Shown here: positions 826 to 44,021 of the stretch, one piece after another
How positions within the stretch are numbered: position 1 is the first letter of the stretch
How the letters are laid out: the number at the start of each line of letters is the position of its first letter
From: Amphiscolops sp. MND2022
Taxonomy: Eukaryota
Direction of reading: 5' to 3'
DNA: 64,000 bases
Assembly: GCA_964187785.1 (NCBI GenBank)
Contig: OZ076409.1
Location: 16,246,001-16,310,000 of the forward strand
Notes under the pieces: generated by a model
Told to the model about the DNA's origin: nothing
Databases searched by the model: none
Seen by the model: only the letters and a program-made list of their open reading frames with translations
Made by a program: the position numbers and the translations under genes

Positions 826-830
826 TTTTT
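825..830 (+). terminator. Pol III oligo-dT terminator of 5S (each unit)
   Basis: TTTTTT directly after the 5S 3' end. Confidence 0.85.
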
Positions 831-835
831 GTCAG

Positions 836-1105
836 AAATGTGGTTTAACTTCGGTGACAGTTTTGCAAAAGGGGTCAAATTGAAAAGATAGCAAAAAACG
901 AACAACGCCATTAGAAAGAGCGTCCAAAAAAACCCCCATGCTGAAATTTTCGCCGCCATCACTTGAATTTTCATTGAGTTATGTCATTTTTACTATTTTC
1001 ACAAAATGTGGTTTAACTTCGGTGACAGTTTTGCAAAAGGGGTCAAAATGAACAGATAGCAAAAAACGGACAACGGCACTGGAAAGAGGGCCCAAAATTA
1101 CCCCT
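836..1105. repeat. Two ~100-bp direct subrepeats in the spacer (period 168 bp; recur in the other units)
   Basis: AAATGTGGTTTAACTTCGGTGACAGTTTTGCAAAAGGGGTCAAA... at 836 and 1004. Confidence 0.92.
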
Positions 1106-1309
1106 AAAACGTGTTTTTCACACTCCTGAGTCGACTTTTGATAATACATGGAATTTCATTTTTAAGCTTACTAATTTATGCTTTTCAGCATACATTTTCG
1201 TAATAGAGTCAAAATTTTGCTTTCTCGCAATTTTTCTGGAATATTTTTGTTTCATCAGATGTCAATAACTTGAAACGTCGTCTTTTCATGAGAATTTCTC
1301 CTCAAAACA

Positions 1310-1384
1310 AGTTGTTGGCTGGTAATGGTAAGTCCGTACCGCAGATAGGACTCTCGCGCTCCAAAAATTGACTCTTTGCTTTTA
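1310..1384 (+). promoter_or_regulatory. Presumed upstream promoter region of the SL RNA gene (boundaries unknown)
   Basis: Conserved, relatively GC-rich block (GGTAAGTCCGTACCGCAGATAGGACTCTCGCGCTCC) at about -60 to -23 of the SL start, where snRNA-type proximal elements usually lie. Position-based inference only. Confidence 0.4.
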
Positions 1385-1401
1385 GCCTAATTGTTGTGAT
1401 A

Positions 1402-3005
1402 CTGCGTGTGTCAGCAATTATTTGCTAACTCTACTCTCACTGCTGCGGCAGAGAAGACGAAAATTACCTGAACAATGCCTTTATTGACAGCAGAATTCAT
1501 CATTCCTTACACAAAAGAAGAAATTACCAGCCCAAACATAAAGCAAGCTGTTTACAAAGAATTCCTTTGCAAGCTTTTACATGCTTTATCGCCTACTCAT
1601 ATTGACAGCGTGACATGCATTAAATCGTATGTGTCCAAACATGCGCCAGCGCATGAGCATGAAAAGAAGCTTGAATGCATCAAAATTATTGCTCCAAACT
1701 CGATAGAAAACGACTTCAAAAACCTACTTCTTAAAGGAATTCCTTACAAAAACCGGATAATTTATGCATTCCAAAACAGTGATGTTTATTCTAACTCCTA
1801 CCCAAAGCAATTCACTTTGAAATTCCGCAATTTACCACACTTTTTAGAAGATGGAGAGATCGTGGAGGCTTGTAATCTGCAAGAGTACAAAATTTCCAAA
1901 TTACGCCACCAAAGAGTAAGAATTTCTGACGACATCGAAGCCTTTACTGGAATCTGTTATGCTGAAATAGAGATTGCCAATCAATGCCAATTAGAAAACA
2001 TCAAATCATGGAACCAACAAGCCTTTTTGAACCAGTTTGTTACTAATGAAATTCCCTTCAAATGTTACATTCAAACCTTGTTACAATGTGAGAATTGTAA
2101 CGAAGGAAAACGCCAATTTATGGGCCATCATAAGAAGCAATGCAAACATCACTCAACACAAAAAAACAATCTTAGCAATGAAGATACTGAGCCAATACCT
2201 TCTGAGGAGGAGGAGGAGTCAGCTGATGAACCTGAAAACAAAGCCACGAAAGTGGATCCCGATATTGCTTTTTTACCGTTTTACCTCGATGTGGACAACG
2301 AAATTATTCAGACTGTCAACAGAATGGAATCAAAATATCCTAAACTAGCAGAATGTGATCACAAAGGAGGTGATATCAACATCATTAACGATAAAAAAGT
2401 TGTTGTTAACCAACTAAGATATGTCCAAAAACTATCGGAATCAGCACAACAAGAGATGTTTGAAGACAAAGAGTGGAGAAGCCGAACCTCCTCTTCAAAG
2501 ATCGCCAACTACGATGCCTTCAAATACATCAAAGGAAGACTGGATGCCTTCTTTTACAAACCCGAGAACATCATTTATTTAGTAAATCTCCAAGGAAAAG
2601 TTAGATATGACTTTATCCCATTTGAAAAACAAGATTGATGCTATTTTTTGTAACAAACACAAATAACTCAAAACCCACTCCTTGATATGCTACACCCTCA
2701 AATCCCAAGTCTTTTAAAGTTCAATACCATGCTATTAAAATAGCCAAAAAACAGTTTGATCCAATAACTCCATCCAGGAGCAAACATCACTTTTACCCCA
2801 CATACTCAAGACTACATTATGCTAATTTCTTCAAAAAAAACAACGTTCTTTTTTGCTTGAACTTTCAAACAAGCTTCCATTTTTCACTCAGTACTTTTTC
2901 ATACTCTTATACAGTACTTTGTACACCTTTTATACCGTTTATATCTTTTATACAATTTATACTAACATTTTTGTTAGCGTAAAGTTTACAATAAAGTCTT
3001 CAAAA
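1402..3005 (+). mobile_element. ORF1-only non-autonomous retroelement, family B
   Basis: Flanked by the 17-bp duplication GCCTAATTGTTGTGATA (1385-1401 / 3006-3022); single ORF; ends AATAAAGTCTTCAAAA. Confidence 0.88.
1475..2638 (+). CDS. ORF1-like protein, family B (387 aa; CX2CX9HX4C knuckle, acidic linker, extra C-terminal domain)
   Basis: ATG-initiated ORF; YPKQFTLKFRNLP and CENCNEGKRQFMGHHKKQC align by eye with the autonomous ORF1. Confidence 0.85.
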   Translation: MPLLTAEFIIPYTKEEITSPNIKQAVYKEFLCKLLHALSPTHIDSVTCIKSYVSKHAPAHEHEKKLECIKIIAPNSIENDFKNLLLKGIPYKNRIIYAFQNSDVYSNSYPKQFTLKFRNLPHFLEDGEIVEACNLQEYKISKLRHQRVRISDDIEAFTGICYAEIEIANQCQLENIKSWNQQAFLNQFVTNEIPFKCYIQTLLQCENCNEGKRQFMGHHKKQCKHHSTQKNNLSNEDTEPIPSEEEEESADEPENKATKVDPDIAFLPFYLDVDNEIIQTVNRMESKYPKLAECDHKGGDINIINDKKVVVNQLRYVQKLSESAQQEMFEDKEWRSRTSSSKIANYDAFKYIKGRLDAFFYKPENIIYLVNLQGKVRYDFIPFEKQD

Positions 3006-3115
3006 GCCTAATTGTTGTGATAAACTTATTAAATAGGTAAGTATTCCAACCCTATTGATAAGTTTTATTTGAAAGCAGACTGCGAAAGTGGTCTGCTGCC
3101 CAATTTTTGAACAAG
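3006..3115 (+). ncRNA. Putative SL RNA copy (downstream of insert)
   Basis: Same sequence as 481-590. Confidence 0.75.
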
Positions 3116-3231
3116 GAACAAGCTAGTCTGCACTAACTTAAAAGTTACGCGTATTTTGACCGAGAAAATTTTCGTATCATTGTACGTAATTTTGTTGTTA
3201 AGCATATAAAGCTATTGATTCTACAATGATC

Positions 3232-3350
3232 GGCTACGACCATACCATGTTGAATGCACCGGTTCTCGTCCAATCACCGAAGTTAAACAACATAGGGCCT
3301 GGTTAGTACTTGGATGGGAGACCGCTTGGGAACACCAGGTGTTGTAGCCT
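3232..3350 (+). rRNA. 5S rRNA
   Basis: Near-identical to 707-825 (one substitution, GTCCAATC). Confidence 0.96.
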
Positions 3351-3934
3351 TTTTTGTCAGAAATGTGGTTTAACTTCGGTGACAGTTTTGCAAAAGGGGT
3401 CAAATTGAAAAGATAGCGAAAAACGGACAACGCCATTAGAAAGAGCGTCCAAAAAAACCCCCATGCTGAAATTTTCGCCGCCATCACTTGAATTTTCATT
3501 GAGTTATGTCATTTTTACTATTTTCACAAAATGTGGTTTAACTTCGGTGACAGTTTTGCAAAAGGGGTCAAAATGAACAGATAGCAAAAAACGGACAACG
3601 GCACTGGAAAGAGGGCCCAAAATTACCCCTAAAACGTGTTTTTCACACTCCTGAGTCGACTTTTGATAATACATGTAATTTCATTTTTAAGCTGACTAAT
3701 TTATGCTTTTCAGCATACATTTTCGTAATAGAGTCAAAATTTTGCTCACAAATTTTCTCACAATTTTTCTGGAATATTTTTGTTTCATCAGATGTCAATA
3801 ACTTGAAACGTCGTCTTTTCATGAGAATTTCTCCTCAAAACAAGTTGTTGGCTGGTAATGGTAAGTCCGTACCGCAGATAGGACTCTCGCGCTCCAAAAA
3901 TTGACTCTTTGCTTTTAGCCTAATTGTTGTGATA

Positions 3935-5917
3935 CGGCGTTACTCTGTCAGCCTGCAAACTTTGTTTGCACAGCGCCATCTTGCAAATTTTGCAGCAAAA
4001 GTTGCAAAAGTAATGACTAATTTGAACACGAGTGAGCTTGATCAACATCATAATGAAAATGTTGAGCAAAATTGTTACAAAAATGCAGTTATTTCCTTGT
4101 CGAAATCGAACTCAAATATGGACAAATTACCAATTATTATCAACTTTGCCTTACCACTGACATCTGAAATGTTCAAAAACAGCAAATTACTGGATTCAAT
4201 GTTTGTGGAAGCTGTTATGGCCGTCAAAAACCGACTTAACTCCAATGAAATTACCATCTTCAAAACTACAATTTTACGCAACAAAGGCAATTTGAAGTGT
4301 ATTACTGTGATCATTCCTTACAAACTTGAAAATGCAGCTTCCTCTCTTATTCACGAGGGCATTACTCTTCGCAATCGGAAAATACGGCCTTATTCTGTCA
4401 ATTATTCCAACCCGAACAACAATGTCTATCCAAAAAGATTACCAATATCTTTCCGAAACCTACCACACTTTCTGACGGATGAGGATATTTTGAGTAGCTG
4501 TGGTCTTCAAAACTTCAAATTTAGTAGCAAAAATTTTCATCAACAACGACGACTTCCTGATAGCAGCCTTTTTTATACAGGAGAGGCAAGAATTACAGTT
4601 TTAATTGACAATGAGAATGAGGAAAGTTTACTACAAAACTGGGCCAATAATGCATATGACAAAATGTTTAGTTCCAGTGGCATTTTTTTCAAATGTTGCT
4701 GTATCCCACTCCTCGAATGCTCTTTATGCGTCAATGAGAACCTTCCCAGTGCTCATCAACAATCAAGATGCCCAAAACAACTATCAGACGAACAGCAAAT
4801 ACAGAAAAACAGTGAATCTCAGAACCAGAAGTTAACAACTGACTACGTTATGGAAACTGCAGAAACAGAGCCAATGTCTAATGAACCTGAACTGTCAGAT
4901 TCAGATGATGCTGAACCAATCTCAAAGGCACCAAAGCAGACCGATGATGGTACTGAAACCGAATGCAACAACAACGTGGCAGAAACTGAACAACCATGCA
5001 TTAACAACTCAAAGAAAGATACCATTCCTATGCAAAAACCTAAACTAATGCATCGCTCAACTGAATGGAAATCCTCAACAGACCTTGCCCGAAATCAAGC
5101 AGATGACCAACAGTCAACGGCAAAGCATGGATATCATGAATACCCATTCTTTTTGGAAAAGAAACAAAACAAAATACTGACACCCGAAACTATTTTCAAC
5201 GAAATACCTCCTATAAAAGAACATGTGATCAAAACCCAACAAACTTCTGGCTACATCAATACACTAGACAAGGAAAAGAAAATTCAAAGGACCTTTTCAC
5301 TCGTACAACCACTGAAGAAAGAAAAACTTGAAGATCTTTTATCTGAATCAAACTGGAAACATTCTGACTCTAACACTATTTTAACTTCTCATTTTGAATT
5401 TTACTCATTGATCCGGAAGTTTGATCCATTCTATGATGCTACAAACCACCAAATTTACACTATTAATCTGGAGAATAAAATTGTACAAGTTTTCACTGCA
5501 GTTGAAAACTTATACAATGAAAACAAAAACTAAACTGAAAAATTTCGGACCTTTTTGACTGGAACTTTAAAGTTCTAAATCTCTACAATACCATCATCAA
5601 TCAACCCAATTCCCAATTCTTTTCGAGCACTAGTTGCTCGCAACCTGTATGCAAAAAACGGGTTTTGAAAACAAACTCCTTCCAGGAGCAAACATCTTTT
5701 TTTCATACATTCTCCAAACTACATTATACTAACTTCATACCTAAAAAAAAACATTCCCATTTTGGCGCTTTCTCAAAAATGCCATAACCAAGCATCTTCA
5801 TCTACATACTTCAGCTTTTTCAACACTTCAGTTACTCATATACTCATTTTATACCTATACCTTAGACTTCATTACTTTTTACTTGTAAATTCTCAGTTTT
5901 CAATAAATTCTTTAAAA
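3935..5917 (+). mobile_element. ORF1-only non-autonomous retroelement, family A
   Basis: 17-bp duplication at 3918-3934 / 5918-5934; ends AATAAATTCTTTAAAA. Confidence 0.9.
4013..5533 (+). CDS. ORF1-like protein, family A (506 aa from first ATG; the track's GTG start at 3929 lies in the SL duplication)
   Basis: YPKRLPISFRNLPHF, FYTGEARI, CSLCVNENLPSAHQQSRC knuckle; intact in 8 of 9 complete copies. Confidence 0.87.
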   Translation: MTNLNTSELDQHHNENVEQNCYKNAVISLSKSNSNMDKLPIIINFALPLTSEMFKNSKLLDSMFVEAVMAVKNRLNSNEITIFKTTILRNKGNLKCITVIIPYKLENAASSLIHEGITLRNRKIRPYSVNYSNPNNNVYPKRLPISFRNLPHFLTDEDILSSCGLQNFKFSSKNFHQQRRLPDSSLFYTGEARITVLIDNENEESLLQNWANNAYDKMFSSSGIFFKCCCIPLLECSLCVNENLPSAHQQSRCPKQLSDEQQIQKNSESQNQKLTTDYVMETAETEPMSNEPELSDSDDAEPISKAPKQTDDGTETECNNNVAETEQPCINNSKKDTIPMQKPKLMHRSTEWKSSTDLARNQADDQQSTAKHGYHEYPFFLEKKQNKILTPETIFNEIPPIKEHVIKTQQTSGYINTLDKEKKIQRTFSLVQPLKKEKLEDLLSESNWKHSDSNTILTSHFEFYSLIRKFDPFYDATNHQIYTINLENKIVQVFTAVENLYNENKN

Positions 5918-6027
5918 GCCTAATTGTTGTGATAAACTTATTAAATAGGTAAGTATTCCAACCCTATTGATAAGTTTTATTTGAAAGCAGACTGCGAAAG
6001 TGGTCTGCTGCCCAATTTTTGAACAAG
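5918..6027 (+). ncRNA. Putative SL RNA copy (downstream of insert)
   Basis: Same as 481-590. Confidence 0.75.
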
Positions 6028-6143
6028 GAACAAGCTAGTCTGCACTAACTTAAAAGTTACGCGTATTTTGACCGAGAAAATTTTCGTATCATTGTACGTA
6101 ATTTTGTTGTTAAGCATATAAAGCTATTGATTCTACAATGATC

Positions 6144-6262
6144 GGCTACGACCATACCATGTTGAATGCACCGGTTCTCGTCCGATCACCGAAGTTAAAC
6201 AACATAGGGCCTGGTTAGTACTTGGATGGGAGACCGCTTGGGAACACCAGGTGTTGTAGCCT
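6144..6262 (+). rRNA. 5S rRNA
   Basis: Same as 707-825. Confidence 0.97.
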
Positions 6263-6837
6263 TTTTTGTCAGAAATGTGGTTTAACTTCGGTGACAGTTT
6301 TGCAAAAGGGGTCAAATTGAAAAGATAGCAAAAAACGGACAACGCCATTAGAAAGAGCGTCCAAAAAACCCCCATGCTGAAATTTTCGCCGCCATCACTT
6401 GAATTTTCATTGAGTTATGTCATTTTTACTATTTTCACAAAATGTGGTTTAACTTCGGTGACAGTTTTGCAAAAGGGGTCAAAATGAACAGATAGCAAAA
6501 AACGGACAACGGCACTGGAAAGAGGGCCCAAAATTACCCCTAAAACGTGTTTTTCACACTCCTGAGTCGACTTTTGATAATACATGGAATTTCATTTCTA
6601 AGCTTACTAATTTATGCTTTTCAGCATACATTTTCGTAATAGAGTCAAAATTTTGCTTTCTCACAATTTTTCTGGAATATTTTTGTTTCATCAGATGTCA
6701 ATAACTTGAAACGTCGTCTTTTCATGAGAATTTCTCCTCAAAACAAGTTGTTGGCTGGTAATGGTAAGTCCGTACCGCAGATAGGACTCTCGCGCTCCAA
6801 AAATTGACTCTTTGCTTTTAGCCTAATTGTTGTGATA

Positions 6838-8265
6838 GCCGTGAACAGTTGACTTCTGACTTCTGACTTTCACGAAAAATTGCAAATGTCAACTGAAATA
6901 CCAAATCAAGTACGGAGCTATGCACAAATTCTTCATGAAAATTCAGCTAGTTTGCCTGTTTTTACCCCGATTATCGTTCGTTTCGTGTTACCAATTCCAA
7001 AAGAAATTTTACATAATGGCAAATTACTTGACAAACTGTTTATAGAATCCGTTATTGCTGTTCAAAAATGCTTACCAATTGCAAATGTTTCCCAAACAAC
7101 AATCTTTAAAAGTACAATCCAACGAAAAAAAGGAAACTTGAAAGCAATTACTGTTATTATCCCATCATTTTTGCGAAATGAAGCAAGAGAAATGTTAACT
7201 AAAGGTATTACAATGAACGGCAGAGTAATTCCTCCTTACTCCATTCATGACTCGTCAAAAACAGATGCTGATTACCCAAAAAACTTGAGAATTTCCTTTA
7301 GAAACATGCCTCATTGCATATCAAAAGAAGAAATAATTATATCTTGCGGATTAGAGGCTTTCAGGTTAGAAGAAATTGCTCATCAACAGAGACGGCTCCC
7401 TAATGGAAACCTGTTTTACACTGGTCTTGCCAGGGTGGAAGCTATTATTGCAAATCAAGAAGAGGAATGCAGACTTAAGGAATGGTCTAAACATGCAATC
7501 CAACAAACACTTTCTTGCAATGGAGCGACGTTTCAATGTTATTGCCCTTCCTTTACAGTTGCCAATGACCTGCAAAAAACCTCTGGTATGCATCACGAAC
7601 AATTATCAGAAGCCCCAGAACAAATGCAAGCTACAGAACCCTCAATTCAAAACGAAAACCAATCAGATCCCACAGCTAGTACCTCAAAAAAACCAGTGAA
7701 TTTCGAAGACGAAAATTTGGATTCCACTGGTGAAATAGACAATATTCAATCTGATCCGCCTGCTGAGGATTTAGAAAGTTCCTCATCTTGGGATGAAGAT
7801 TCATCTAAAAGTGGATCGTCAATTGAAAAACCTGCATCTAAAATCCAGAGGAGATCGTCACTCGAACAACTTACATCTAAAACCCAAAAGAGACATCAAC
7901 CGATCTATTATTATCATCGCGAACGAAAAACAATTCTTGATGAAAAAACGACATGGACTACTTACCCAGAGGCAAACTCTCTTCTAGATAACAAGCAGCT
8001 GATTCCTGTAGCACTTGTAACAGAAGAAGAACAAAGAATCATGTTTGAATATTTCCAATTTGGCTATAATTGAACTACTATCAGAAGATACGATGAATTT
8101 GCGATAATTAAAAGAAAATATAATGTATTCAGAATGCGTAAATATAAGAAAATTTTCTTTGTAAATCTCCGAGGTCAAGTCAAAAATGCCGTGATATTGG
8201 ATAAAATACTTTAGACCTCATTACCATTATACTTGTAAACTCTCAACAAAATAAATTCTTTAAAA
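6838..8265 (+). mobile_element. ORF1-only non-autonomous retroelement, family C (tandem with D)
   Basis: Duplication at 6821-6837 / 8266-8282; ends AATAAATTCTTTAAAA. Confidence 0.87.
6886..8073 (+). CDS. ORF1-like protein, family C; probable premature TGA (homologous frame continues to 8214)
   Basis: Clearly similar to family A (KGNLKAITVIIP, YPKNLRISFRNMPH, HQQRRLP, LFYTG); lacks the CX2C knuckle. Confidence 0.8.
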   Translation: MSTEIPNQVRSYAQILHENSASLPVFTPIIVRFVLPIPKEILHNGKLLDKLFIESVIAVQKCLPIANVSQTTIFKSTIQRKKGNLKAITVIIPSFLRNEAREMLTKGITMNGRVIPPYSIHDSSKTDADYPKNLRISFRNMPHCISKEEIIISCGLEAFRLEEIAHQQRRLPNGNLFYTGLARVEAIIANQEEECRLKEWSKHAIQQTLSCNGATFQCYCPSFTVANDLQKTSGMHHEQLSEAPEQMQATEPSIQNENQSDPTASTSKKPVNFEDENLDSTGEIDNIQSDPPAEDLESSSSWDEDSSKSGSSIEKPASKIQRRSSLEQLTSKTQKRHQPIYYYHRERKTILDEKTTWTTYPEANSLLDNKQLIPVALVTEEEQRIMFEYFQFGYN

Positions 8266-8282
8266 GCCTAATTGTTGTGATA

Positions 8283-9713
8283 CTGCGGTAGCAGCAATTA
8301 TTTGACCAAATTCATTCTCTCTCGCATCTGCTGAGGCAGGGACGATTATCTCACTTGAAAGAATGCCTAATTTCCTTACATTGGACTTTATAATACCTTA
8401 CTCCAAAGAAGAAATTACTAATCCTTCTCTAAAGCTTGTTACTTACAAAAGCTTTCTTTGCTCGTTACTTAAATGTTTACCTAGTGACGCTGTTAAACGC
8501 GTGACCTGCATGAAATCGCACGTGTACAAACATGCGCCGCACGAAAAGAAACTTGAGAGCGTCAAAGTTATCGGTCCAATTTCATTACAAAACGAGTTTA
8601 ATTCCATTATTTCTGATGGAATTTTGTTCAAAAATCGCAAGATTTATGCTCTACAAAACCATGATGTTACGTCCAATGCTTACCCCAAGCAATTTACGAT
8701 CAAATTTTGTAATTTACCACACTTCTTTCCTGATACCGATGTTATTTCGGCTTGCAATTTGAAAGATTTCAAACTTTCAAAGTTACGACACCAATTAGAG
8801 AAACTTTCTGAGGAAATTGAAACCTACACAGGCATTTGTTATGCGGATGTGGAAATCCAGGACGAAGCCCAATTACAACAGCTCATTTCATGGAATGAAA
8901 CCAGCTTTTTGAACAAATACTATCTAGAAGAAATTCCATTTAAATGCCAAATTCAAACATTACTACAATGCGATTTCTGCAGACAAAAGAAGCTCCAGTT
9001 TTTGGGGCACCATGTACGCCAATGCAAAGCCAAAAAGACACAATTAGAACCAGAATCTGAGGAAGATAGCATCTCAACCACGAAAACAAATGAAGAAAAA
9101 GAACTAGAAGCCACAGATGCAAACAAGAACAACACAGAACATACTTTCTATATTGATTTAGAAAAATGCCAAATTCGAAACATACATGACATGGACGAAC
9201 TCCATAAAGGATTTAGCAAGCTTCTTGCTTTGCAGGAATGCAAGCCTGTGAATGTCTTGAATGACAACAATGTAGTGATAAATCAACTACGACATGTGAA
9301 GAATATTACTGAAGAAAAACAGCGGAAGCTTTTCAAACAACAAAACAGATGGGGAAGTCCTTCATCAGACGTCCCAATCAAGAACTTCTCAGAGTTTTGT
9401 GAACTCCGGGGAAAGCTAGATGTGTTCTACGACTCAACAAAAGGCGAAGAAACCCTTTACCTGATGAACCTATCCAAGAAAGTGACCCACATTTTCAAAA
9501 AGAAACAACAACCACACTAACAAAACTACATTATACTAATTTTCAAACTTTGATTTCCATGTTAAATCAAAACTCTCATATTATACAATCATCACCAAGT
9601 CTTTCATTTACTCAATACTATAAGTATGCTAAGTTATTCATACTCAACACTTTAGTATTAATGTAAAGACTATTTGATTTATAAAGGCAAATTTCCAAAT
9701 ACATTCTTTAAAA
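8283..9713 (+). mobile_element. ORF1-only non-autonomous retroelement, family D
   Basis: Duplication at 8266-8282 / 9714-9730; ends AATACATTCTTTAAAA. Confidence 0.88.
8363..9520 (+). CDS. ORF1-like protein, family D (385 aa)
   Basis: Close paralogue of B (FIIPYSKEEITNP, YPKQFT, CDFCRQKKLQFLGHHVRQC). Confidence 0.86.
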   Translation: MPNFLTLDFIIPYSKEEITNPSLKLVTYKSFLCSLLKCLPSDAVKRVTCMKSHVYKHAPHEKKLESVKVIGPISLQNEFNSIISDGILFKNRKIYALQNHDVTSNAYPKQFTIKFCNLPHFFPDTDVISACNLKDFKLSKLRHQLEKLSEEIETYTGICYADVEIQDEAQLQQLISWNETSFLNKYYLEEIPFKCQIQTLLQCDFCRQKKLQFLGHHVRQCKAKKTQLEPESEEDSISTTKTNEEKELEATDANKNNTEHTFYIDLEKCQIRNIHDMDELHKGFSKLLALQECKPVNVLNDNNVVINQLRHVKNITEEKQRKLFKQQNRWGSPSSDVPIKNFSEFCELRGKLDVFYDSTKGEETLYLMNLSKKVTHIFKKKQQPH

Positions 9714-9823
9714 GCCTAATTGTTGTGATAAACTTATTAAATTGGTAAGTATTCCAACCCTATTGATAAGTTTTATTTGAAAGCAGACTGCGAAAGTGGT
9801 ATGCTGCCCAATTTTTGAACAAG
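9714..9823 (+). ncRNA. Putative SL RNA copy, degenerate (substitutions at 9743 and 9801)
   Basis: AAATTG|GTAAGT instead of AAATAG|GTAAGT; stem II mismatch. Confidence 0.65.
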
Positions 9824-9939
9824 GAACAAGCTAGTCTGCACTAACTTAAAAGTTACGCGTATTTTGACCGAGAAAATTTTCGTATCATTGTACGTAATTT
9901 TGTTGTTAAGCATATAAAGCTATTGATTCTACAATGATC

Positions 9940-10617: not shown

Positions 10618-10857
10618 GCCTAATTGTTGTGATAAACTTATTAAATAGGTAAGTATTCCAACCTTGGAATATTTCTTGCCTGTTTGAGGTGTGAATCACA
10701 CTTACTTATCAATAGGGCCCAAAAGCCAGTAACCAAAAACCAGTAACCAATAACCAACCTGTACTTACTGTTTGAAAGGTAAGTATTCCAACCCTATTGA
10801 TAAGTTTTATTTGAAAGCAGACTGCGAAAGTGGTCTGCTGCCCAATTTTTGAACAAG
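10618..10857 (+). pseudogene. SL RNA gene disrupted by a 113-bp insertion at the splice-donor loop
   Basis: Unit is 130 bp longer; AGGTAAGTATTCCAACC duplicated at 10647-10663 and 10777-10793. Confidence 0.75.
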
Positions 10858-19809: not shown

Positions 19810-19919
19810 GCCTAATTGTTGTGATAAACTTATTAAATAGGTAAGTATTCCAACCCTATTGATAAGTTTTATTTGAAAGCAGACTGCGAAAGTGGTCTGC
19901 TGCCCAATTTTTGAACAAG
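19810..19919 (+). ncRNA. Putative SL RNA gene, uninterrupted (empty target site)
   Basis: Native upstream TTGCTTTTA runs directly into the full SL sequence. Confidence 0.82.
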
Positions 19920-20035
19920 GAACAAGCTAGTCTGCACTAACTTAAAAGTTACGCGTATTTTGACCGAGAAAATTTTCGTATCATTGTACGTAATTTTGTT
20001 GTTAAGCATATAAAGCTATTGATTCTACAATGATC

Positions 20036-20730: not shown

Positions 20731-20795
20731 CTTTGTATTACATTTGTGATTACTTTGTATTTGTAAATCTTCAGGTTTAAATAAATTCTTTAAAA
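20731..20795 (+). mobile_element. 65-bp mini-insert (5'-truncated or minimal non-coding retroelement)
   Basis: Full 17-bp duplication at 20714-20730 / 20796-20812; ends TTGTAAA...AATAAATTCTTTAAAA. Confidence 0.8.
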
Positions 20796-20812
20796 GCCTA
20801 ATTGTTGTGATA

Positions 20813-23140: not shown

Positions 23141-23928
23141 TTTTTGTCAGAAATGTGGTTTAACTTCGGTGACAGTTTTGCAAAAGGGGTCAAATTGAAA
23201 AGATAGCAAAAAACGGACAACGCCATTAGAAAGAGCGTCCAAAAAAACCCCCATGCTGAAATTTTCGCCGCCATCACTTGAATTTTCATTGAGTTATGTC
23301 ATTTTTACTATTTTCACAAAATGTGGTTTAACTTCGGTGACAGTTTTGCAAAAGGGGTCAAAATGAACAGATAGCAAAAAACGGACAACGGCACTGGAAA
23401 GAGGGCCCAAAATTACCCCTAAAACGTGTTTTTCACACTCCTGAGTCGACTTTTGATAATACATGGAATTTCATTTTTAAGCTTACCAATTTATGCTTTT
23501 CAGCATACATTTTCGTAATAGAGTCAAAATTTTGCTTTCTCACAATTTTTCTGGAATATTTTTGTTTCATCAGATGTCAATAACTTGAAACGTCGTCTTT
23601 TCATGAGAATTTCTCCTCAAAACAAGTTGTTGGCTGGTAATGGTAAGTCCGTACCGCAGATAGGACTCTCGCGCTCCAACAATTGACTCTTTGCTTTTAG
23701 CCTAATTGTTGTTCACGCGTCGGTTGGTTAGTTATCTTTGACTTTTGACTTCTGATTGTGAAAAACTTTTTTGACGAGTTTTTAACACATAGTACCGCTA
23801 AAACTCTAGAAGTTTAACGAAAAAATTGTTTATTTGGGTTTATACCCCTTTGCACTTTACCCCCTCTGGGTTTATACCCCCCCTTGGGTTTATACTCCCT
23901 TTTGGATAGAGGATAGGAAAACGACTTC

Positions 23929-25260
23929 ATGATTCTTGACGACGATGTTGCTTCTGGTAATGTGGACGTAACAAAAATGCCGATGGATGGTCACGACAAT
24001 ACTGAATATATTCCACCTATTGAAAGCCTCAGCCTTGTTCAATTGTCGGAGCAATCGCAATCTGGGTCTCCGTCACTTACACCACCACCAACATCTTCTC
24101 TACAGAACATACAATCGGCAATAAACATGCAATTATACAGCGCTGTTGCAGGTGCCAACACTCCACCATCTCGCACGACAGCAATAATTAAAATGAAAAT
24201 CATTCCACCATTACAAAAACAACACTTCACAACCAAGGACAACTTCACTACTGCAACCAATCAATGTTTTTCAGCAATTTTACGTTGCTTTCCACCTACA
24301 TACAGACAACAGCTTACTATTTCAAAATCATTTACAATTGTCGGGACAAGACATTTGCATTCAATTAATGTAGTGGCGCCTGTCACAGCCCAGGACATTG
24401 TATCAAAATTGCAAACAACAGGAATATCAATGCTTGGCAAAACTGTATTTCCATCGACAGACAACTTTCTCACTAATTTACCTGGACTCTATCCACGATA
24501 CACTCAAGTGAGACTTCTACATGCACCAGCACAATGCGATGACGAGACCTTAACAGAACTATTACTTCTTCCGGCAGATACGACAATCATAGGATTCAAA
24601 CGTCAGACAGACACGATTGATGGTATGTCCTTTTTCAATGGCAAAATAGCATGCACGATAAAAATCAACAATACAACTCATGAAGAAGAACTACGACAAT
24701 GGTCGTTGGATCAACATGAAAATCCCACAATGATTTGGGAGGAGATTCCTATCTTTGCATTTATTCCCTCACTTCACAATTGCACGTTCTGTAAACAACA
24801 TAACAAACCTCACTTTGGACATGACATTGCCTGGTGCAAACATGCAAAAGCACATCCAACGACTCCACCATCACCTCCTCTACCACAACAGACATCAACT
24901 ACAACTTCGCAGATGCCTCTGCCTCCTCCTTCTTCTTCTGCTACTCCATCTGTTATCGTGCCAACTCCTCCTACTTTGGTTAACAACAACTTGGGTTTAG
25001 CTGACGTACCTGTTACAACGACTGATGATTGGCAACCTGTAACTAAGAAGACTTTCCCTAAACACAGTTTGGTTAGAACGAGGTCTGTTATCAAGGCGAA
25101 AAGACCAAAACACCCGAGCCCTGTAACTGAAGTTAACCCCAATTTGACAGAACCTACGATGACGGCACCGTTCCTTCCGACTACACCCATTTACAATTCA
25201 TTTGACAGCAAGCGGTATTCTAAATCTTCCAGGTCTAAACATGATAGTGTTCAGCCTTAA
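23929..25260 (+). CDS. ORF1p (gag-like nucleic-acid-binding protein; CTFCKQHNKPHFGHDIAWC knuckle; Pro/Thr-rich tail)
   Basis: 443-aa ATG ORF directly upstream of ORF2; open in all 4 copies. Confidence 0.9.
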   Translation: MILDDDVASGNVDVTKMPMDGHDNTEYIPPIESLSLVQLSEQSQSGSPSLTPPPTSSLQNIQSAINMQLYSAVAGANTPPSRTTAIIKMKIIPPLQKQHFTTKDNFTTATNQCFSAILRCFPPTYRQQLTISKSFTIVGTRHLHSINVVAPVTAQDIVSKLQTTGISMLGKTVFPSTDNFLTNLPGLYPRYTQVRLLHAPAQCDDETLTELLLLPADTTIIGFKRQTDTIDGMSFFNGKIACTIKINNTTHEEELRQWSLDQHENPTMIWEEIPIFAFIPSLHNCTFCKQHNKPHFGHDIAWCKHAKAHPTTPPSPPLPQQTSTTTSQMPLPPPSSSATPSVIVPTPPTLVNNNLGLADVPVTTTDDWQPVTKKTFPKHSLVRTRSVIKAKRPKHPSPVTEVNPNLTEPTMTAPFLPTTPIYNSFDSKRYSKSSRSKHDSVQP

Positions 25261-28200
25261 TTGTAGAGGACTGAAGGATCCTCTTCGCCTTGCCATGACT
25301 CTGACTGCTTGTCAGCGTCATGGTGTGAAAAATTTTGTTCTTTTCCTACAAGAAACTAAGATTTCTGAATTTTATATCAATCATAGAAAACTACTTACAC
25401 AACACCATCTCTCGTACTGCATGGTTCCTGCCTCTGATACTGCAGGTGGATTGGTGACAATTTTTCCGTCTTCTTTCCACATAACTTACCGTTTTAACAA
25501 TGAATCCATGCTCCTATTGCGTTTTCAAGAATATAATATCACTTTTAGCAACTGTTATGTCAATCCGCTTGCTTTTCATCTGGAAAAGCTTATTCATGGT
25601 TTCCAACAGCTTTCTCTTCTATCTTCTAGTTCTCACATACTTGGTGGAGATTTTAACTGTTTATCAACCCGTGCTGACACATCTAATGTTAATATTCGAA
25701 GTAATGATTTCCGCTTACTTCGTTTTCGAAAACTTATGAATCTTATGCACCTGCTGGATGTCACACCATGTGCTCCAGCCTCGGCTGCACATCTGTTCAC
25801 ACACTATGATAAAAGGTATAATACATTTAGTCGTTTAGACTACTTTTTTACATCGAGTGTTGACTTCTCTCTCGAAACTGAAGTCATTCCTTTTTCGGAT
25901 CACAAGTTAATTAAGCTTTGTGAAGCGGCATCTTTTACTCCAGCAAACAGTCATTGGAAATTAAATGACAACATTCTGCAGTATCACCATGCAGTACGGG
26001 AGGTTTTGGTGAGTTCTATTGCATCCCGGTCTACGGATTCAGAGTGTATCCTATCGAACTATGATGTCATTAAAAATCTTGTTAGGGATAAACTCCGTAT
26101 CTTTTGTATCCAGAATCATAGACGTAATCTTTTTGAAGAAAATCACCTGAAAGAACTAATACTTGGTGCAGAGAAATATCTACAAATTTTTGGCGTAGAT
26201 TCCAAAACTATTTCTCGTCTTTCAGATTTAAATAAAAAATTGATGGAACTCCAGCACCAGAATGCTCGTAAATGCCTTAAACAGGTGAAAATGTTTTATG
26301 TTGATGCCAATCATGGTGATCCTCAAGTTATTAAAAAACACCTTTCAAATATGAGAAAATCCGTACATATTTCTCAAATACAAGACGACAATGGTGAGGT
26401 CTTGACTACTGATGAGCAGATTTTTGAAGCTTTTCATATGCATTACTCAGATCGTTTTTCCATTCCGCAGGTCAATATCAATAATGATTCCCATGTCAAG
26501 CAGCTGCAAGATGACATTATTGGTACTTTTTGTAGTGTTAAGAGATCTGATATTGAAAATATTCGCACTCTAACCAGAGACCGGGATATGATTAGTGAAC
26601 AAGAAGTTATTAATGCCATTACCAAATTGAATTCTGAAAGTGCTCCTGGTCCTGATGGCCTCACTTCCAACTTTTATAAAGCTCATCAGGAAGTTCTGAG
26701 TCCTCTACTCTGCAGGCTGTTTAACCAGATGGTTACTGATGGTTGGATGCCGCTATCTTTCTCCAGAGCCATTATAAAACTGATTCCTAAAAAACCCAAC
26801 GCCAATCGTGTTGAAGATTTTCGTCCCATCAGTCTTATTAATACAGACCAAAAAATACTCTCTCATATTTTGTCGGAACGAGTTCGCATTCCTGTTGATA
26901 AGCTTATTGGTCCCCACCAATCTGCTTATCTTCCTGGGCGTCACATACACTCTTCTTTATTGAAAGTCTCCTTAAACTTGGAAACCATGCCGTCAAATAA
27001 TTCTCTCATCGCTATTGATTTTAGCAAAGCCTTTGATAAACTAAGTCGAACATTTATCTTTGCGTTATTAGAAAAAATTGGCTTGCACGAAAACACAGTC
27101 AAATTGATTCGCATCATGTATATGCATAATATTGCCTATCTTGACATCAATGGTCAACTCTCTCAACCTGTTCTTATGGAAAATGGAGTTAGGCAAGGCT
27201 GCCCTTTATCCGCGCTCATTTTTATTCTAGGCATTGAACCCCTTCTTCATGCAATTCAGCACTCCTTCAACATTAGATCGGATATGCCGTTTAAAATTAT
27301 CTCGTATGCGGATGATCTTACTTGTGGTATTCACACTGATAATATTCAAGATCTTTTTGATATCATTGATACATTTTCTGGCGTTACGAATTTATCTGTT
27401 AATCAATCTAAAACTGAAATTCTTACATTGAGTAGTCTTCGTCCTCCTCTCCAATCTTGTGACGTTGTTAAAATACTGGGTGTTCACTTTAGTTTGGGCA
27501 ACTCTGCTAGACCTTTCTCTGACTTCATGAACTATGCGCAACGAAGTGGTCAGTATTGTAACAAATACAATACTCTAATAGCTCGTGCGCGAAATATTCA
27601 TACATTTGTTATGCAAAAATTAGTTCATGAAATTCGCCATCTTTATGTCCTAAGGCCTCAATTAGACAAAATTGATAGTATTTTCATTGATGCTATTTGG
27701 CTTGGCCGCAAACACAATCTAAGTAAATTTATTCTCCAGAGACCATGGTCGGCGATGGGTATTGGTCTTCGGAATTTCCGTCAAACTATTGTTTCTTCCA
27801 AAATTATCGACTGCTTCAACTTTCTCTACGAAAACAATTTGCCCGATAATCTTAAACTGTTACTCCAATCTAGGTTTTTTAGAAATCTTAAATTCTTGTG
27901 TCGCACATTTAAATGCTCCATTTCCTTTCCAAACTCCACCACCTGTACTCTTTCTATTGATGACCGTCAACTTGTGATTTCCACCCCTCTTCCCACTAAA
28001 AAAATTTATCATTTTCTTACAGACCGGTCAACTTCGGCAGCTTTTTGCCGAATCTCTAGTATGGCAGAGAAATTATCTGTTCCTGCTTTTTCTATCTTTT
28101 CCTTCATCCGTCACTTGTGGAAGCATCCCTCGTATGCTGCTTTCGAGAAAAATTATTTATATCTGTTTTTCCTTAATTGCTACTTAGAGAAAACCAAAAA

Positions 28201-28492
28201 ACAAGATTTGGGCTTAGTGTTTTCAGCTCATTGCTGTTTTTGTGGTGTTGAAGACGAAACCTTCTCACATCTTATTACTGAATGTCAGCATATTCCATCT
28301 CTCAATTTCTTTAAAACTCCTAGTGATTGCTGTCTAGATTTTCAAAACATGAATGCAATTTACCCTTTCAAACGTCTGATAGCTCTCCTAATTTCCTCAT
28401 GGAGCGAAGATCCGCTCAGATTCTCTAAGTATTTTTTGAATTGTGTCTCCTTAAGGCATCCAACCATTCTTAACCATCAGGCTGTAACGTAA
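25241..28492 (+). CDS. ORF2p: APE-type endonuclease + reverse transcriptase + C-terminal CCHC zinc knuckle
   Basis: APE motifs SLNCRGL, LQETK, GGDFN, SRLDY, SDH; RT motifs PGPDG, FRPISL, DFSKAFD, GVRQGCPLS, YADD; CFCGVEDETFSHLITEC. ATG at 25241 overlaps the ORF1 end by 20 bp (track start TTG 25202). Confidence 0.97.
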   Translation: MIVFSLNCRGLKDPLRLAMTLTACQRHGVKNFVLFLQETKISEFYINHRKLLTQHHLSYCMVPASDTAGGLVTIFPSSFHITYRFNNESMLLLRFQEYNITFSNCYVNPLAFHLEKLIHGFQQLSLLSSSSHILGGDFNCLSTRADTSNVNIRSNDFRLLRFRKLMNLMHLLDVTPCAPASAAHLFTHYDKRYNTFSRLDYFFTSSVDFSLETEVIPFSDHKLIKLCEAASFTPANSHWKLNDNILQYHHAVREVLVSSIASRSTDSECILSNYDVIKNLVRDKLRIFCIQNHRRNLFEENHLKELILGAEKYLQIFGVDSKTISRLSDLNKKLMELQHQNARKCLKQVKMFYVDANHGDPQVIKKHLSNMRKSVHISQIQDDNGEVLTTDEQIFEAFHMHYSDRFSIPQVNINNDSHVKQLQDDIIGTFCSVKRSDIENIRTLTRDRDMISEQEVINAITKLNSESAPGPDGLTSNFYKAHQEVLSPLLCRLFNQMVTDGWMPLSFSRAIIKLIPKKPNANRVEDFRPISLINTDQKILSHILSERVRIPVDKLIGPHQSAYLPGRHIHSSLLKVSLNLETMPSNNSLIAIDFSKAFDKLSRTFIFALLEKIGLHENTVKLIRIMYMHNIAYLDINGQLSQPVLMENGVRQGCPLSALIFILGIEPLLHAIQHSFNIRSDMPFKIISYADDLTCGIHTDNIQDLFDIIDTFSGVTNLSVNQSKTEILTLSSLRPPLQSCDVVKILGVHFSLGNSARPFSDFMNYAQRSGQYCNKYNTLIARARNIHTFVMQKLVHEIRHLYVLRPQLDKIDSIFIDAIWLGRKHNLSKFILQRPWSAMGIGLRNFRQTIVSSKIIDCFNFLYENNLPDNLKLLLQSRFFRNLKFLCRTFKCSISFPNSTTCTLSIDDRQLVISTPLPTKKIYHFLTDRSTSAAFCRISSMAEKLSVPAFSIFSFIRHLWKHPSYAAFEKNYLYLFFLNCYLEKTKKQDLGLVFSAHCCFCGVEDETFSHLITECQHIPSLNFFKTPSDCCLDFQNMNAIYPFKRLIALLISSWSEDPLRFSKYFLNCVSLRHPTILNHQAVT

Positions 28493-28639
28493 CTAAGTTC
28501 AATTATATTTATATCTTGCAACCAATGAACCATTCACTTACTTTGATTAGCTACTGAATTGTCTGAATTATGAACTTGGTCTACGCTATTTGATTGATTC
28601 ATTTGTTCCTACTGATTTACTGTAATTAATTCTTTAAAA

Positions 28640-36047: not shown

Positions 36048-36836
36048 TTTTTGTCAGAAATGTGGTTTAACTTCGGTGACAGTTTTGCAAAAGGGGTCAA
36101 ATTGAAAAGATAGCAAAAAACGGACAACGCCATTAGAAAGAGCGTCCAAAAAAACCCCCATGCTGAAATTTTCGCCGCCATCACTTGAATTTTCATTGAG
36201 TTATGTCATTTTTACTATTTTCACAAAATGTGGTTTAACTTCGGTGACAGTTTTGCAAAAGGGGTCAAAATGAACAGATAGCAAAAAACGGACAACGGCA
36301 CTGGAAAGAGGGCCCAAAATTACCCCTAAAACGTGTTTTTCACACTCCTGAGTCGACTTTTGATAATACATGGAATTTCATTTTTAAGCTTACTAATTTA
36401 TGCTTTTCAGCATACATTTTCGTAATAGAGTCAAAATTTTGCTTTCTCACAATTTTTCTGGAATATTTTTGTTTCATCAGATGTCAATAACTTGAAACGT
36501 CGTCTTTTCATGAGAATTTCTCCTCAAAACAAGTTGTTGGCTGGTAATGGTAAGTCCGTACCGCAGATAGGACTCTCGCGCTCCAAAAAATGACTCTTTG
36601 CTTTTAGCCTAATTGTTGTTCACGCGTCGGTTGGTTAGTTATCTTTGACTTTTGACTTCTGATTGTGAAAAACTTTTTTGACGAGTTTTTAACACATAGT
36701 ACCGCTAAAACTCTGGAAGTTTAACGAAAAAATTGTTTATTTGGGTTTATACCCCTTTGCACTTTACCCCCTCTGGGTTTATACCCCCCCCTTGGGTTTA
36801 TACTCCCTTTTGGATAGAGGATAGGAAAACGACTTC

Positions 36837-38168
36837 ATGATTCTTGACGACGATGTTGCTTCTGGGAATGTGGACGTAACAAAAATGCCGATGGATGGTC
36901 ACGACAATACTGAATATATTCCACCTATTGAAAGCCTCAGCCTTGTTCAATTGTCGGAGCAATCGCAATCTGGGTCTCCGTCACTTACACCACCACCAAC
37001 ATCTTCTCTACAGAACATACAATCGGCAATAAACACGCAATTATACAGCGCTGTTGCAGGTGCCAACACTCCACCATCTCGCACGACAGCAATAATTAAA
37101 ATGAAAATCATTCCACCATTACAAAAACAACACTTCACAACCAAGGACAACTTCACTACTGCAACCAATCAATGTTTTTCAGCAATTTTACGTTGCTTTC
37201 CACCTACATACAGACAACAGCTTACTATTTCAAAATCATTTACAATTGTCGGGACAAGACATTTGCATTCAATTAATGTAGTGGCGCCTGTCACAGCCCA
37301 GGACATTGTATCAAAATTGCAAACAACAGGAATATCAATGCTTGGCAAAACTGTATTTCCATCGACAGACAACTTTCTCACTAATTTACCTGGACTCTAT
37401 CCACGATACACTCAAGTGAGACTTCTACATGCACCAGCACAATGCGATGACGAGACCTTAACAGAACTATTACATCTTCCGGCAGATACGACAATCATAG
37501 GATTCAAACGTCAGACAGACACGATTGATGGTATGTCCTTTTTCAATGGCAAAATAGCATGCACGATAAAAATCAACAATACAACTCATGAAGAAGAACT
37601 ACGACAATGGTCGTTGGATCAACATGAAAATCCCACAATGATTTGGGAGGAGATTCCTATCTTTGCATTTATTCCCTCACTTCACAATTGCACTTTCTGT
37701 AAACAACATAACAAACCTCACTTTGGACATGACATTGCCTGGTGCAAACATGCAAAAGCACATCCAACGACTCCACCATCACCTCCTCTACCACAACAGA
37801 CATCAACTACAACTTCGCAGATGCCTCTGCCTCCTCCTTCTTCTTCTGCTACTCCATCTGTTATTGCGCCAACTCCTCCTACTTTGGTTAACAACAACTT
37901 GGGTTTAGCTGACGTACCTGTTACAACGACTGATGATTGGCAACCTGTAACTAAGAAGACTTTCCCTAAACACAGTTTGGTTAGAACGAGGTCTGTTATC
38001 AAGGCGAAAAGACCAAAACACCCGAGCCCTGTAACTGAAGTTAACCCCAATTTGACAGAACCTACGATGACGGCACCGTTCCTTCCGACTACACCCATTT
38101 ACAATTCATTTGACAGCAAGCGGTATTCTAAATCTTCCAGGTCTAAACATGATAGTGTTCAGCCTTAA
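36837..38168 (+). CDS. ORF1p
   Basis: Near-identical to 23929-25260. Confidence 0.9.
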   Translation: MILDDDVASGNVDVTKMPMDGHDNTEYIPPIESLSLVQLSEQSQSGSPSLTPPPTSSLQNIQSAINTQLYSAVAGANTPPSRTTAIIKMKIIPPLQKQHFTTKDNFTTATNQCFSAILRCFPPTYRQQLTISKSFTIVGTRHLHSINVVAPVTAQDIVSKLQTTGISMLGKTVFPSTDNFLTNLPGLYPRYTQVRLLHAPAQCDDETLTELLHLPADTTIIGFKRQTDTIDGMSFFNGKIACTIKINNTTHEEELRQWSLDQHENPTMIWEEIPIFAFIPSLHNCTFCKQHNKPHFGHDIAWCKHAKAHPTTPPSPPLPQQTSTTTSQMPLPPPSSSATPSVIAPTPPTLVNNNLGLADVPVTTTDDWQPVTKKTFPKHSLVRTRSVIKAKRPKHPSPVTEVNPNLTEPTMTAPFLPTTPIYNSFDSKRYSKSSRSKHDSVQP

Positions 38169-41898: not shown

Positions 41899-42689
41899 TT
41901 TTTGTCAGAAATGTGGTTTAACTTCGGTGACAGTTTTGCAAAAGGGGTCAAATTGAAAAGATAGCAAAAAACGGACAACGCCATTAGAAAGAGCGTCCAA
42001 AAAACCCCCATGCTGAAATTTTCGCCGCCATCACTTGAATTTTCATTGAGTTATGTCATTTTTACTATTTTCACAAAATGTGGTTTAACTTCGGTGACAG
42101 TTTTGCAAAAGGGGTCAAAATGAACAGATAGCAAAAAACGGACAACGGCACTGGAAAGAGGGCCCAAAATTACCCCTAAAACGTGTTTTTCACACTCCTG
42201 AGTCGACTTTTGATAATACATGGAATTTCATTTTTAAGCTTACTAATTTATGCTTTTCAGCATACATTTTCGTAATAGAGTCAAAATTTTGCTTTCTCAC
42301 AATTTTTCTGGAATATTTTTGTTTCATCAGATGTCAATAACTTGAAACGTCGTCTTTTCATGAGAATTTCTCCTCAAAACAAGTTGTTGGCTGGTAATGG
42401 TAAGTCCGTACCGCAGATAGGACTCTCGCGCTCCAAAAATTGACTCTTTGCTTTTAGCCTAATTGTTCACGCGTCGGTTGGTTAGTTATCTTTGACTTTT
42501 GACTTCTGATTGTGAAAAACTTTTTTGACGAGTTTTTAACACATAGTAAAAAAAACCGCTAAAACTCTAGAAGTTTAACGAAAAAATTGTTTATTTGGGT
42601 TTATACCCCTTTGCACTTTACCCCCTCTGGGTTTATACCCCCCCTTGGGTTTATACTCCCTTTTGGATAGAGGATAGGAAAACGACTTC

Positions 42690-44021
42690 ATGATTCTTGA
42701 CGACGATGTTGCTTCTGGTAATGTGGACGTAACAAAAATGCCGATGGATGGTCACGACAATACTGAATATATTCCACCTATTGAAAGCCTCAGCCTTGTT
42801 CAATTGTCGGAGCAATCGCAATCTGGGTCTCCGTCACTTACACCACCACCAACATCTTCTCTACAGAACATACAATCGGCAATAAACACGCAATTATACA
42901 GCGCTGTTGCAGGTGCCAACACTCCACCATCTCGCACGACAGCAATAATTAAAATGAAAATCATTCCACCATTACAAAAACAACACTTCACAACCAAGGA
43001 AAACTTCACTACTGCAACCAATCAATGTTTTTCAGCAATTTTACGTTGCTTTCCACCTACATACAGACAACAGCTTACTATTTCAAAATCATTTACAATT
43101 GTTGGGACCAGACATTTGCATTCAATTAATGTAGTGGCGCCTGTCACAGCCCAGGACATTGTATCAAAATTGCAAACAACAGGAATATCAATGCTTGGCA
43201 AAACTGTATTTCCATCGACAGACAACTTTCTCACTAATTTACCTGGACTCTATCCACGATACACTCAAGTGAGACTTCTACATGCACCAGCACAATGCGA
43301 TGACGAGACCTTAACAGAACTATTACATCTTCCGGCAGATACGACAATCATAGGATTCAAACGTCAGACAGACACGATTGATGGTATGTCCTTTTTCAAT
43401 GGCAAAATAGCATGCACGATAAAAATCAACAATACAACTCATGAAGAAGAACTACGACAATGGTCGTTGGATCAACATGAAAATCCCACAATGATTTGGG
43501 AGGAGATTCCTATCTTTGCATTTATTCCCTCACTTCACAATTGCACGTTCTGTAAACAACATAACAAACCTCACTTTGGACATGACATTGCCTGGTGCAA
43601 ACATGCAAAAGCACATCCAACGACTCCACCATCACCTCCTCTACCACAACAGACATCAACTACAACTTCGCAGATGCCTCTGCCTCCTCCTTCTTCTTCT
43701 GCTACTCCATCTGTTATCGTGCCAACTCCTCCTACTTTGGTTAACAACAACTTGGGTTTAGCTGACGTACCTGTTACAACGACTGATGATTGGCAACCTG
43801 TAACTAAGAAGACTTTCCCTAAACACAGTTTGGTTAGAACGAGGTCTGTTATCAAGGCGAAAAGACCAAAACACCCGAGCCCTGTAACTGAAGTTAACCC
43901 CAATTTGACAGAACCTACGATGACGGCACCGTTCCTTCCGACTACACCCATTTACAATTCATTTGACAGCAAGCGGTATTCTAAATCTTCCAGGTCTGAA
44001 CATGATAGTGTTCAGCCTTAA
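42690..44021 (+). CDS. ORF1p
   Basis: Near-identical to 23929-25260. Confidence 0.9.
   Translation: MILDDDVASGNVDVTKMPMDGHDNTEYIPPIESLSLVQLSEQSQSGSPSLTPPPTSSLQNIQSAINTQLYSAVAGANTPPSRTTAIIKMKIIPPLQKQHFTTKENFTTATNQCFSAILRCFPPTYRQQLTISKSFTIVGTRHLHSINVVAPVTAQDIVSKLQTTGISMLGKTVFPSTDNFLTNLPGLYPRYTQVRLLHAPAQCDDETLTELLHLPADTTIIGFKRQTDTIDGMSFFNGKIACTIKINNTTHEEELRQWSLDQHENPTMIWEEIPIFAFIPSLHNCTFCKQHNKPHFGHDIAWCKHAKAHPTTPPSPPLPQQTSTTTSQMPLPPPSSSATPSVIVPTPPTLVNNNLGLADVPVTTTDDWQPVTKKTFPKHSLVRTRSVIKAKRPKHPSPVTEVNPNLTEPTMTAPFLPTTPIYNSFDSKRYSKSSRSEHDSVQP

Follow-up and report, generated by a model that had tools for sequence, protein, structure and literature searches.

Host promoter use and leader-assisted integration, partly supported, for an L1-group retrotransposon and its ORF1-only satellites in SL RNA genes

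Introduction

SL genes are already known as targets of elements with a restriction-like endonuclease, namely SLACS/CRE and NeSL. SLACS, which belongs to the CRE clade and is found in Trypanosoma brucei, inserts only in SL RNA genes, and its transcription has been reported to run from +1 of the interrupted SL gene into the element (available text of PMC3447711). The restriction-like endonuclease of SLACS/CRE is described in the accessible part of PMC4640811, which also presents NeSL as an SL-specific non-LTR element of animals that has an RLE enzyme and a Ulp1-like protease and is given there as confined to nematodes. Another relevant system is R2 with upstream self-cleavage, for which the available portion of PMC3774820 describes a host promoter, an RNA with target sequence at its 5′ end, and uniform, heritable 5′ junctions. 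Elements of the Tx1 clade (Keno, Tx1L and others) have APE and RT and favour multicopy targets such as the U2, U5 and 5S genes, and SL is not among the targets named in the available text of PMC4494074.

Here we analyze a 64-kb window (the whole stretch of DNA under study) in which an element, R, and several satellites interrupt SL RNA genes. R shares SL-exon-specific insertion with SLACS/CRE and NeSL; however, it has an N-terminal APE in place of the restriction-like endonuclease. It differs further from SLACS in its animal host, in the SL-5S unit that it occupies and in being accompanied by several ORF1-only satellites, and from NeSL in having two ORFs and no protease match. R works like CRE/SLACS and NeSL but is no member of either. 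In R2 an HDV-like ribozyme cuts the Pol I co-transcript, whereas the host start would define the 5′ end of the window elements. R resembles the site-specific elements of the Tx1 clade and may belong to it; its RT identity to distant relatives in snRNA and tRNA arrays is only 20–38%, and the preference for a multicopy target is likewise seen in the window. Our literature search, outside which Repbase and most subscription journals lay, found no SL-specific APE element in acoels, and the available parts of PMC4721609 and PMC8869645 hold nothing on mechanism.

The original prediction for this DNA held that the elements are transcribed from the host SL promoter as fusions to the first leader bases and that this leader-derived end helps to complete integration. 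The DNA evidence agrees with host SL promoter use and with 5′ joining helped by the leader, for both of which there are direct precedents, and we regard the prediction as partly supported. The whole model, promoter capture together with leader-assisted integration, is in our estimate the likeliest reading (probability about 0.55).

Results

The window holds 904-bp units repeated in tandem, each with a gene for SL RNA and another for 5S rRNA, with 21 Rfam RF00001 matches and 40 SL starts, all on the + strand and none on the − strand (Table 1). The SL RNA gene has a GT donor and a stem-loop fold, its leader is found on eight mRNA-like contigs, and it has an Sm-like site at 3102–3110. Its 31-nt leader is identical to the published leader of Symsagittifera roscoffensis, which in the available text of PMC9911081 was reconstructed from transcripts with its 5′ end not mapped. 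The host should accordingly be this acoel or a relative with the same leader. Among the 21 spacer-linked SL starts, 17 run into an insert, one has a different insert in its intron and three are whole. At a second SL site, after nt 46, there is a 113-nt insert (10664–10776) with a 17-nt duplication; it has no family 3′ tail, its 5′ end forms a foldback with the SL bases upstream, and within it are stretches complementary to the SL stem downstream and to the 5′ splice site.

Table 1. Positions in the window of the array features and elements, with the dispersed loci found elsewhere
Feature	Position or loci	Strand	Remarks
Conserved TCCAAAA	1360–1366	+	−25 to −19 of SL start; candidate promoter element; same position in window, L042 and L084
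Conserved GCTTTTA	1378–1384	+	−7 to −1, before leader; window, L042 and L084
SL nt 1–17	1385–1401	+	upstream copy of target-site duplication; putative element-RNA 5′ end
Satellite A, ORF1-only non-autonomous element	1402–3005	+	5′UTR 1402–1474; ATG 1475
Satellite A ORF, 387-aa ORF1-like protein	1475–2638	+	two tandem RRM-like folds, Cys/His knuckle, extra C-terminal domain
Satellite A 3′ end	2990–3005	+	hexamer resembling a poly(A) signal at −16; fixed tail with four A at its end
Restored SL RNA gene, upstream spacer absent	3006–3117	+	exon 3006–3036, GT donor 3037; 3′ end approximate
5S rRNA gene of SL-5S unit	3232–3350	+	Rfam RF00001; 21 in window
Satellite B, after SL nt 17	3935–5917	+	nine copies with 5′ end in view, eight with open 506-aa ORF
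Satellite C, 395-aa ORF, after SL nt 17	6838–8265	+	
Satellite D, 385-aa ORF, three copies	8283–9713	+	tandem behind C, no spacer upstream
Uninterrupted spacer-linked SL gene	19810–19921	+	one of only three in window; others from 29544 and 35703
65-nt insert with family 3′ tail	20731–20795	+	
Autonomous element R, after SL nt 13	23713–28639	+	ORF1 23929–25260; ORF2 25241–28492
R copy with junction after SL nt 10	42467–47405	+	
Dispersed leader loci	L013, L019, L020, L023, L027, L038, L043, L044, L058, L074, L076		

R is an L1-group non-LTR retrotransposon with an APE and RT ORF2, a separate ORF1 and a target-site duplication. Its ORF2 comprises an N-terminal APE endonuclease, an RT and a C-terminal zinc domain, with Pfam matches to PF03372 and PF00078 above cut-off and to PF13966 below cut-off (E 3e-4), and its closest solved structure is human L1 ORF2p (PDB match, E 1e-56). 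The Pfam search gave no protease match in the R proteins, and nothing above cut-off for R ORF1 or the four satellite proteins. L1 elements typically have a variable poly(A) tail and frequent 5′ truncation. Neither habit is seen here: the A-run at each of the 19 visible 3′ junctions is exactly four long, and 5′ truncation is absent from the 18 ORF-bearing inserts.

Satellites A, B, C and D each encode only an ORF1-like protein, with which the 443-aa R ORF1 can be aligned. The satellite A protein is 26–48% identical to those of B, C and D and 22% identical (E 1e-13) to ORF1 of L045, an autonomous relative. Its structural model (pLDDT 78.9) finds tandem-RRM proteins as best Foldseek matches, with E about 1e-4. 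The satellite ORF1 proteins at 1475–2638, 4013–5533 and 8363–9520 have an extra, confidently modelled C-terminal alpha/beta domain that R ORF1 is without, and in satellite A this domain is predicted to span about residues 268–385.

The array contains both intact and decayed copies. Two of the three complete R copies have a shortened ORF2, one B copy has a stop in its ORF, and ORF regions of decayed copies lie at 38071–41043, 43924–46947 and 48310–50309. Tandem repeats of ∼16–19 nt occur in the R 5′UTR (23833–23902, 36767–36807, 42594–42663 and 60059–60128). With one unit and one incomplete R copy left out, mean divergence between copies is 0.54% for B, 0.78% for D and 0.43% for R, and 0.51% for the SL-5S units.

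All 19 inserts with a 5′ junction in view (nine B, four R, three D and one each of A, C and a 65-mer) share one target site, a multicopy sequence in the SL exon, and each begins 10–17 nt past the SL start, as had been predicted. The junction lies after SL nt 17 in 15 of them, which are all 15 non-R inserts, and the R copies have it after nt 13 (three of four) or nt 10 (one of four). The very short satellite 5′UTRs of the original prediction were also borne out, with lengths of 73 (A), 78 (B), 48 (C) and 80 nt (D); that of R is 216–223 nt. An intact upstream region before every insert was claimed as well, and this holds for 17 of the 19; the exceptions are D at 8266 and B at 20796, which directly follow another element's 3′ end with no spacer upstream. 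Identical 5′ junctions within satellite families are found in B (nine copies) and D (three copies), the only families in which this can be tested, apart from one B copy with a substitution at element nt 13. That truncation would be limited to the 65-mer is correct as regards the ORF-bearing inserts. The 65-mer itself is no truncation of any window family, its best match being to the B 3′ end at 46 of 65 bases, and represents either a mini-element of its own or part of a family that the window does not contain.

A new SL start follows each of the 19 visible 3′ junctions, with a full SL gene at 17 and another insert at two. The claim that a complete SL is restored behind the inserts, away from its upstream DNA, agrees with this count. 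No special mechanism is needed for its regeneration, however, because any target-primed insertion with a target-site duplication yields the same arrangement, and the restored copy alone is uninformative about transcription. The duplication measures 10–17 nt plus an ambiguous A, and may be 18 nt if A1384 is included. A poly(A)-signal-like hexamer stands at −16 of the 3′ end in all six window families and in both elements from outside it, and at the SL start the primer strand offers no run of T with which a poly(A) tail could pair.

A scan of public metagenome contigs for SL(1–17) gave 87 loci. Sixty-three of these were set aside as chance matches with neither leader continuation nor SL-type upstream sequence, leaving 24 that are SL-related. 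Two of them have spacers otherwise diverged from those of the window, namely L042, an SL-5S unit that is intact, and L084, a junction with an element; the motifs at −25 and −7 are kept in all three arrays. Neither motif is present in the element 3′ ends. A replacement promoter in these 3′ ends was considered and rejected, since their similarity to the spacer is no better than that of shuffles (0.10–0.89 of which score as well). The available text of PMC4494074 places snRNA promoters generally upstream and reports no internal promoter in genes encoding snRNA. The conservation of the upstream motifs and their absence from element 3′ ends argue for an external promoter that the displaced SL copy has lost, and this copy would be promoterless, a conclusion that is supported indirectly. 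The spacer end at 1328–1385 has the look of a small intron (GTAAGT, a branch-like TTGAC, a pyrimidine run and AG at SL +1), and its donor-like hexamer GTAAGT is kept in neither L042 nor L084.

The base before the leader is A in all 11 dispersed leader-headed loci and in all eight mRNA-like contigs, which suggests that SL RNA begins at A1384 or a little earlier, and probably not at G1385 as originally proposed. The second base before the leader in the dispersed loci is T in eight and G in three. The eight mRNA-like contigs (L001, L011, L012, L016, L017, L032, L073 and L087) have 1–25 nt of upstream-type sequence before the leader, three of them beginning exactly at −7; this extension may reflect a leader longer than the published one or an effect of assembly.

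Several of the outside loci carry relatives of R at the same target. L045 (51% identical to R in ORF1 and 39% in ORF2) starts after SL nt 17, possibly 18; L084 has the same upstream-SL(1–17) junction as the window elements; and in L021 and L031, whose ORF2 RTs are 33–34% identical to that of R, the elements end at the SL start. These four loci suggest that the insertion geometry is old. In a quick RT tree (83 of 87 rows, four being dropped for short RT coverage), the three SL-verified RTs fall on separate branches of a 34-row clade (SH-aLRT 99); the rows have no clade labels, and the tree is informative on the targets of these three rows only. A scan of a genome collection found only distant relatives, with 20–38% RT identity to R, which sit in U2/U1/5S, U5 and tRNA arrays. 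Animal-type snRNA/tRNA arrays with L1/Tx1-like elements (L091–L093, L130 and L131; L098, L102 and L118; L090) lie in bacterial genome bins and are mis-binned host DNA; they comprise a U5 array broken after U5 nt 37, U2-U1-5S with an element ending at U2 nt 38, and tRNA.

The 11 dispersed loci are of another type. They contain the leader to or near its end with unique flanks, APE or RT motifs are found in nine of them, and five of six frames tested have Pfam matches. From these sequences it seems that acoel LINEs undergo trans-splicing and then insert again together with the leader, whose own final AG could serve as the next acceptor, so that an identical 5′ end would be restored.

We also looked at pairing between leader and element 5′ end, which amounts to 13 pairs in A and 10–13 in D, with a motif in A, D, C, R and L045 that shows only A/G variation opposite leader U. 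Initially p was low for A, while D and R were borderline. Under better controls A has p 0.009 (20- and 25-nt windows), 0.03 (30 nt) and 0.21 (40 nt), eight families combined give P 0.06, 0.12, 0.45 and 0.94, and shuffled leaders do as well in 9/300 trials (20 nt), or 36/300 without A. Being not significant overall, with only A passing the controls, the hairpin was rejected as evidence.

Discussion

We observe directly in the DNA the target, the 10–17-nt duplication, the fixed junctions and the proteins. We propose that an L1-group (APE and RT) element and ORF1-only satellites insert at the SL gene start by target-primed reverse transcription, in which the bottom strand would be nicked at the SL start. 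Judging from the conserved upstream sequence, element copies behind a spacer are probably transcribed from the external SL promoter, and it is similarly probable that the RNA begins with the first 11–18 leader bases and an ordinary m7G cap. We put it slightly above even odds that the cDNA, through its leader-derived end, pairs with the top strand once this is cut and so primes second-strand synthesis. With such priming each family would inherit its own junction and few truncated copies would be finished. The displaced SL gene would lose its promoter, the expected outcome whenever an insertion separates an external promoter from the gene behind it.

The junctions are uniform within a family and different between families. 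In R2, according to the accessible part of PMC3774820, uniform junctions accompany an RNA that has upstream target sequence at its 5′ end, and where a whole family falls short by 3 or 7 bp this is put down to inheritance via the template. By analogy, the 4-nt shortfall in three of the four R copies looks the same as these inherited shortfalls. A leader piece on the element RNA is likewise favoured by the apparent age of the insertion geometry in L045, L084, L021 and L031. Leader nt 19–31 are found at none of 21 5′ junctions (19 in the window, two outside), and the reverse-transcribed RNA is without leader nt 18–31 at the junction. The original prediction took a full leader on element transcripts as contradicting promoter capture. 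A full leader on some element mRNAs is no refutation, because only the reverse-transcribed RNA matters. The same prediction suggested a TMG cap. Hypermethylation of the snRNA cap requires an Sm core. Since an RNA cut a few bases into the SL would be without an Sm site, a TMG cap is improbable unless there is read-through to the downstream Sm site, and an m7G cap is expected.

At the other end, the four A at all 19 3′ ends suggest that SL sequence may be present at both termini of the element RNA. In the simplest reading, transcripts extend a few bases into the downstream SL copy and pair there with the primer, fixing the 3′ junction, a tentative step to which we give a little less than even odds; GU-rich bases of the downstream leader could act as a downstream element of 3′-end formation. 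R1 elements reportedly show read-through pairing with their target. The more extended proposal that both RNA ends are handed to the target, with promoter, 3′-end signal and both homology arms all taken from the SL gene and the element's hexamer at −16 acting together with the GU-rich leader copy to terminate the RNA, is doubtful.

An ordinary L1/Tx1-type element would read much of this evidence differently, and we consider it an unlikely but serious competitor. It would have an internal 5′UTR promoter, RNA starting from its first base and a fixed stagger giving a 17–18-bp duplication, and the array would have been amplified by unequal crossing-over or gene conversion multiplying a few full-length insertions. 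Short motifs common to element 5′ ends could be the internal promoter, namely GCG(T/G) at element nt 3–6 in A, B, D and L084 and C-R-R-T-T-G at nt 9–14 in C, R and L045, and B has CGCCATCTT at 3974–3982, which we take to be a match to the YY1 consensus and count on the same side. A fixed duplication also arises from a fixed cut stagger, and a duplication of 17 nt also flanks the unrelated-looking 113-nt insert at the other SL site. The junctions of two tandem copies are perfect despite the lack of a spacer. Because divergence among element copies is no greater than among units (0.43–0.78% vs 0.51%), and the copies are no younger than the units, array amplification of few insertions could equally have produced the uniform junctions, and the 13/10 split of R fits TTGT microhomology in two registers equally well. 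This account leaves unexplained, except by microhomology, why R, the likely source of the enzyme, has a shorter duplication than its satellites. The lack of truncations in four ORF1-only families with mostly distant proteins also counts against it, as does a family order along the array that has no evident period. Flank variants are not common to B sub-lineages, although the linkage of B copies with their flanks (rho 0.11, p 0.33) covers only eight of nine copies and has little power.

Promoter capture is also questioned from two other directions. Upstream read-through transcripts could be trans-spliced or processed so as to place a full leader before SL(2–17), with the inner copy annealing at integration. 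By eye, acceptor-like sequence is present at 1371–1385 (pyrimidine run and AG at the SL start) and in the 5′UTRs of B and L084; the upstream-type sequence before the leader on the mRNA-like contigs and the leader-headed LINE-like loci of related animals point the same way, and the available text of PMC12220107 reports the leader on about 30% of Hydra TE long reads. Yet the dispersed loci show that trans-splicing leaves a visible signature, and neither a doubled leader nor leader nt 19–31 occurs at any of the 21 array junctions, which counts for an RNA that begins with only a piece of the leader. In R2 elements with upstream homology, tandem duplications are found in a minority of copies (accessible part of PMC3774820). 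Ribozyme searches gave no Rfam match at the gathering score across the window or at E up to 1 in 830–9930; the latter leans against the processing variant, and we hold this alternative as a whole to be quite unlikely. It is very improbable, finally, that the SL promoter is internal or downstream, in which case displaced copies would stay active and the elements would capture nothing. Capture of 17 of 21 promoters is nonetheless a heavy load, with only three of the 21 spacer-linked SL genes uninterrupted, and raises the question whether displaced copies are truly silent; 11 of 17 displaced copies are unmutated over their first 112 nt. Working genes may, however, sit in other arrays of the genome, the upstream sequence is conserved at fixed positions, and no internal promoter is reported for snRNA genes in the available text of PMC4494074. 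Substitutions in six of 17 displaced and none of three linked copies lean the same way but are too few to test.

Promoter capture as a concept is not new; the L1-group enzyme is the new part. L021, L031 and L045 share the SL target, and in acoels an APE-type lineage on it would count as one more independent arrival. If the extended proposal on both RNA ends is true, the system would represent precise APE-type insertion without a poly(A) tail, and promoterless ORF1-only satellites together with the 65-nt mini-element would occupy ∼4/5 of the SL promoters of the array. The 5′ joining of non-LTR elements is still argued indirectly, being named as the greatest uncertainty of the R2 model in the accessible part of PMC3774820, and families with 17, 13 and 10 nt of leader on one target offer a natural test. 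The insert load matters for a trans-splicing host, in which about 30% of genes would be concerned if the species is, or is close to, Symsagittifera roscoffensis, where about that share of genes is trans-spliced according to the available text of PMC9911081.
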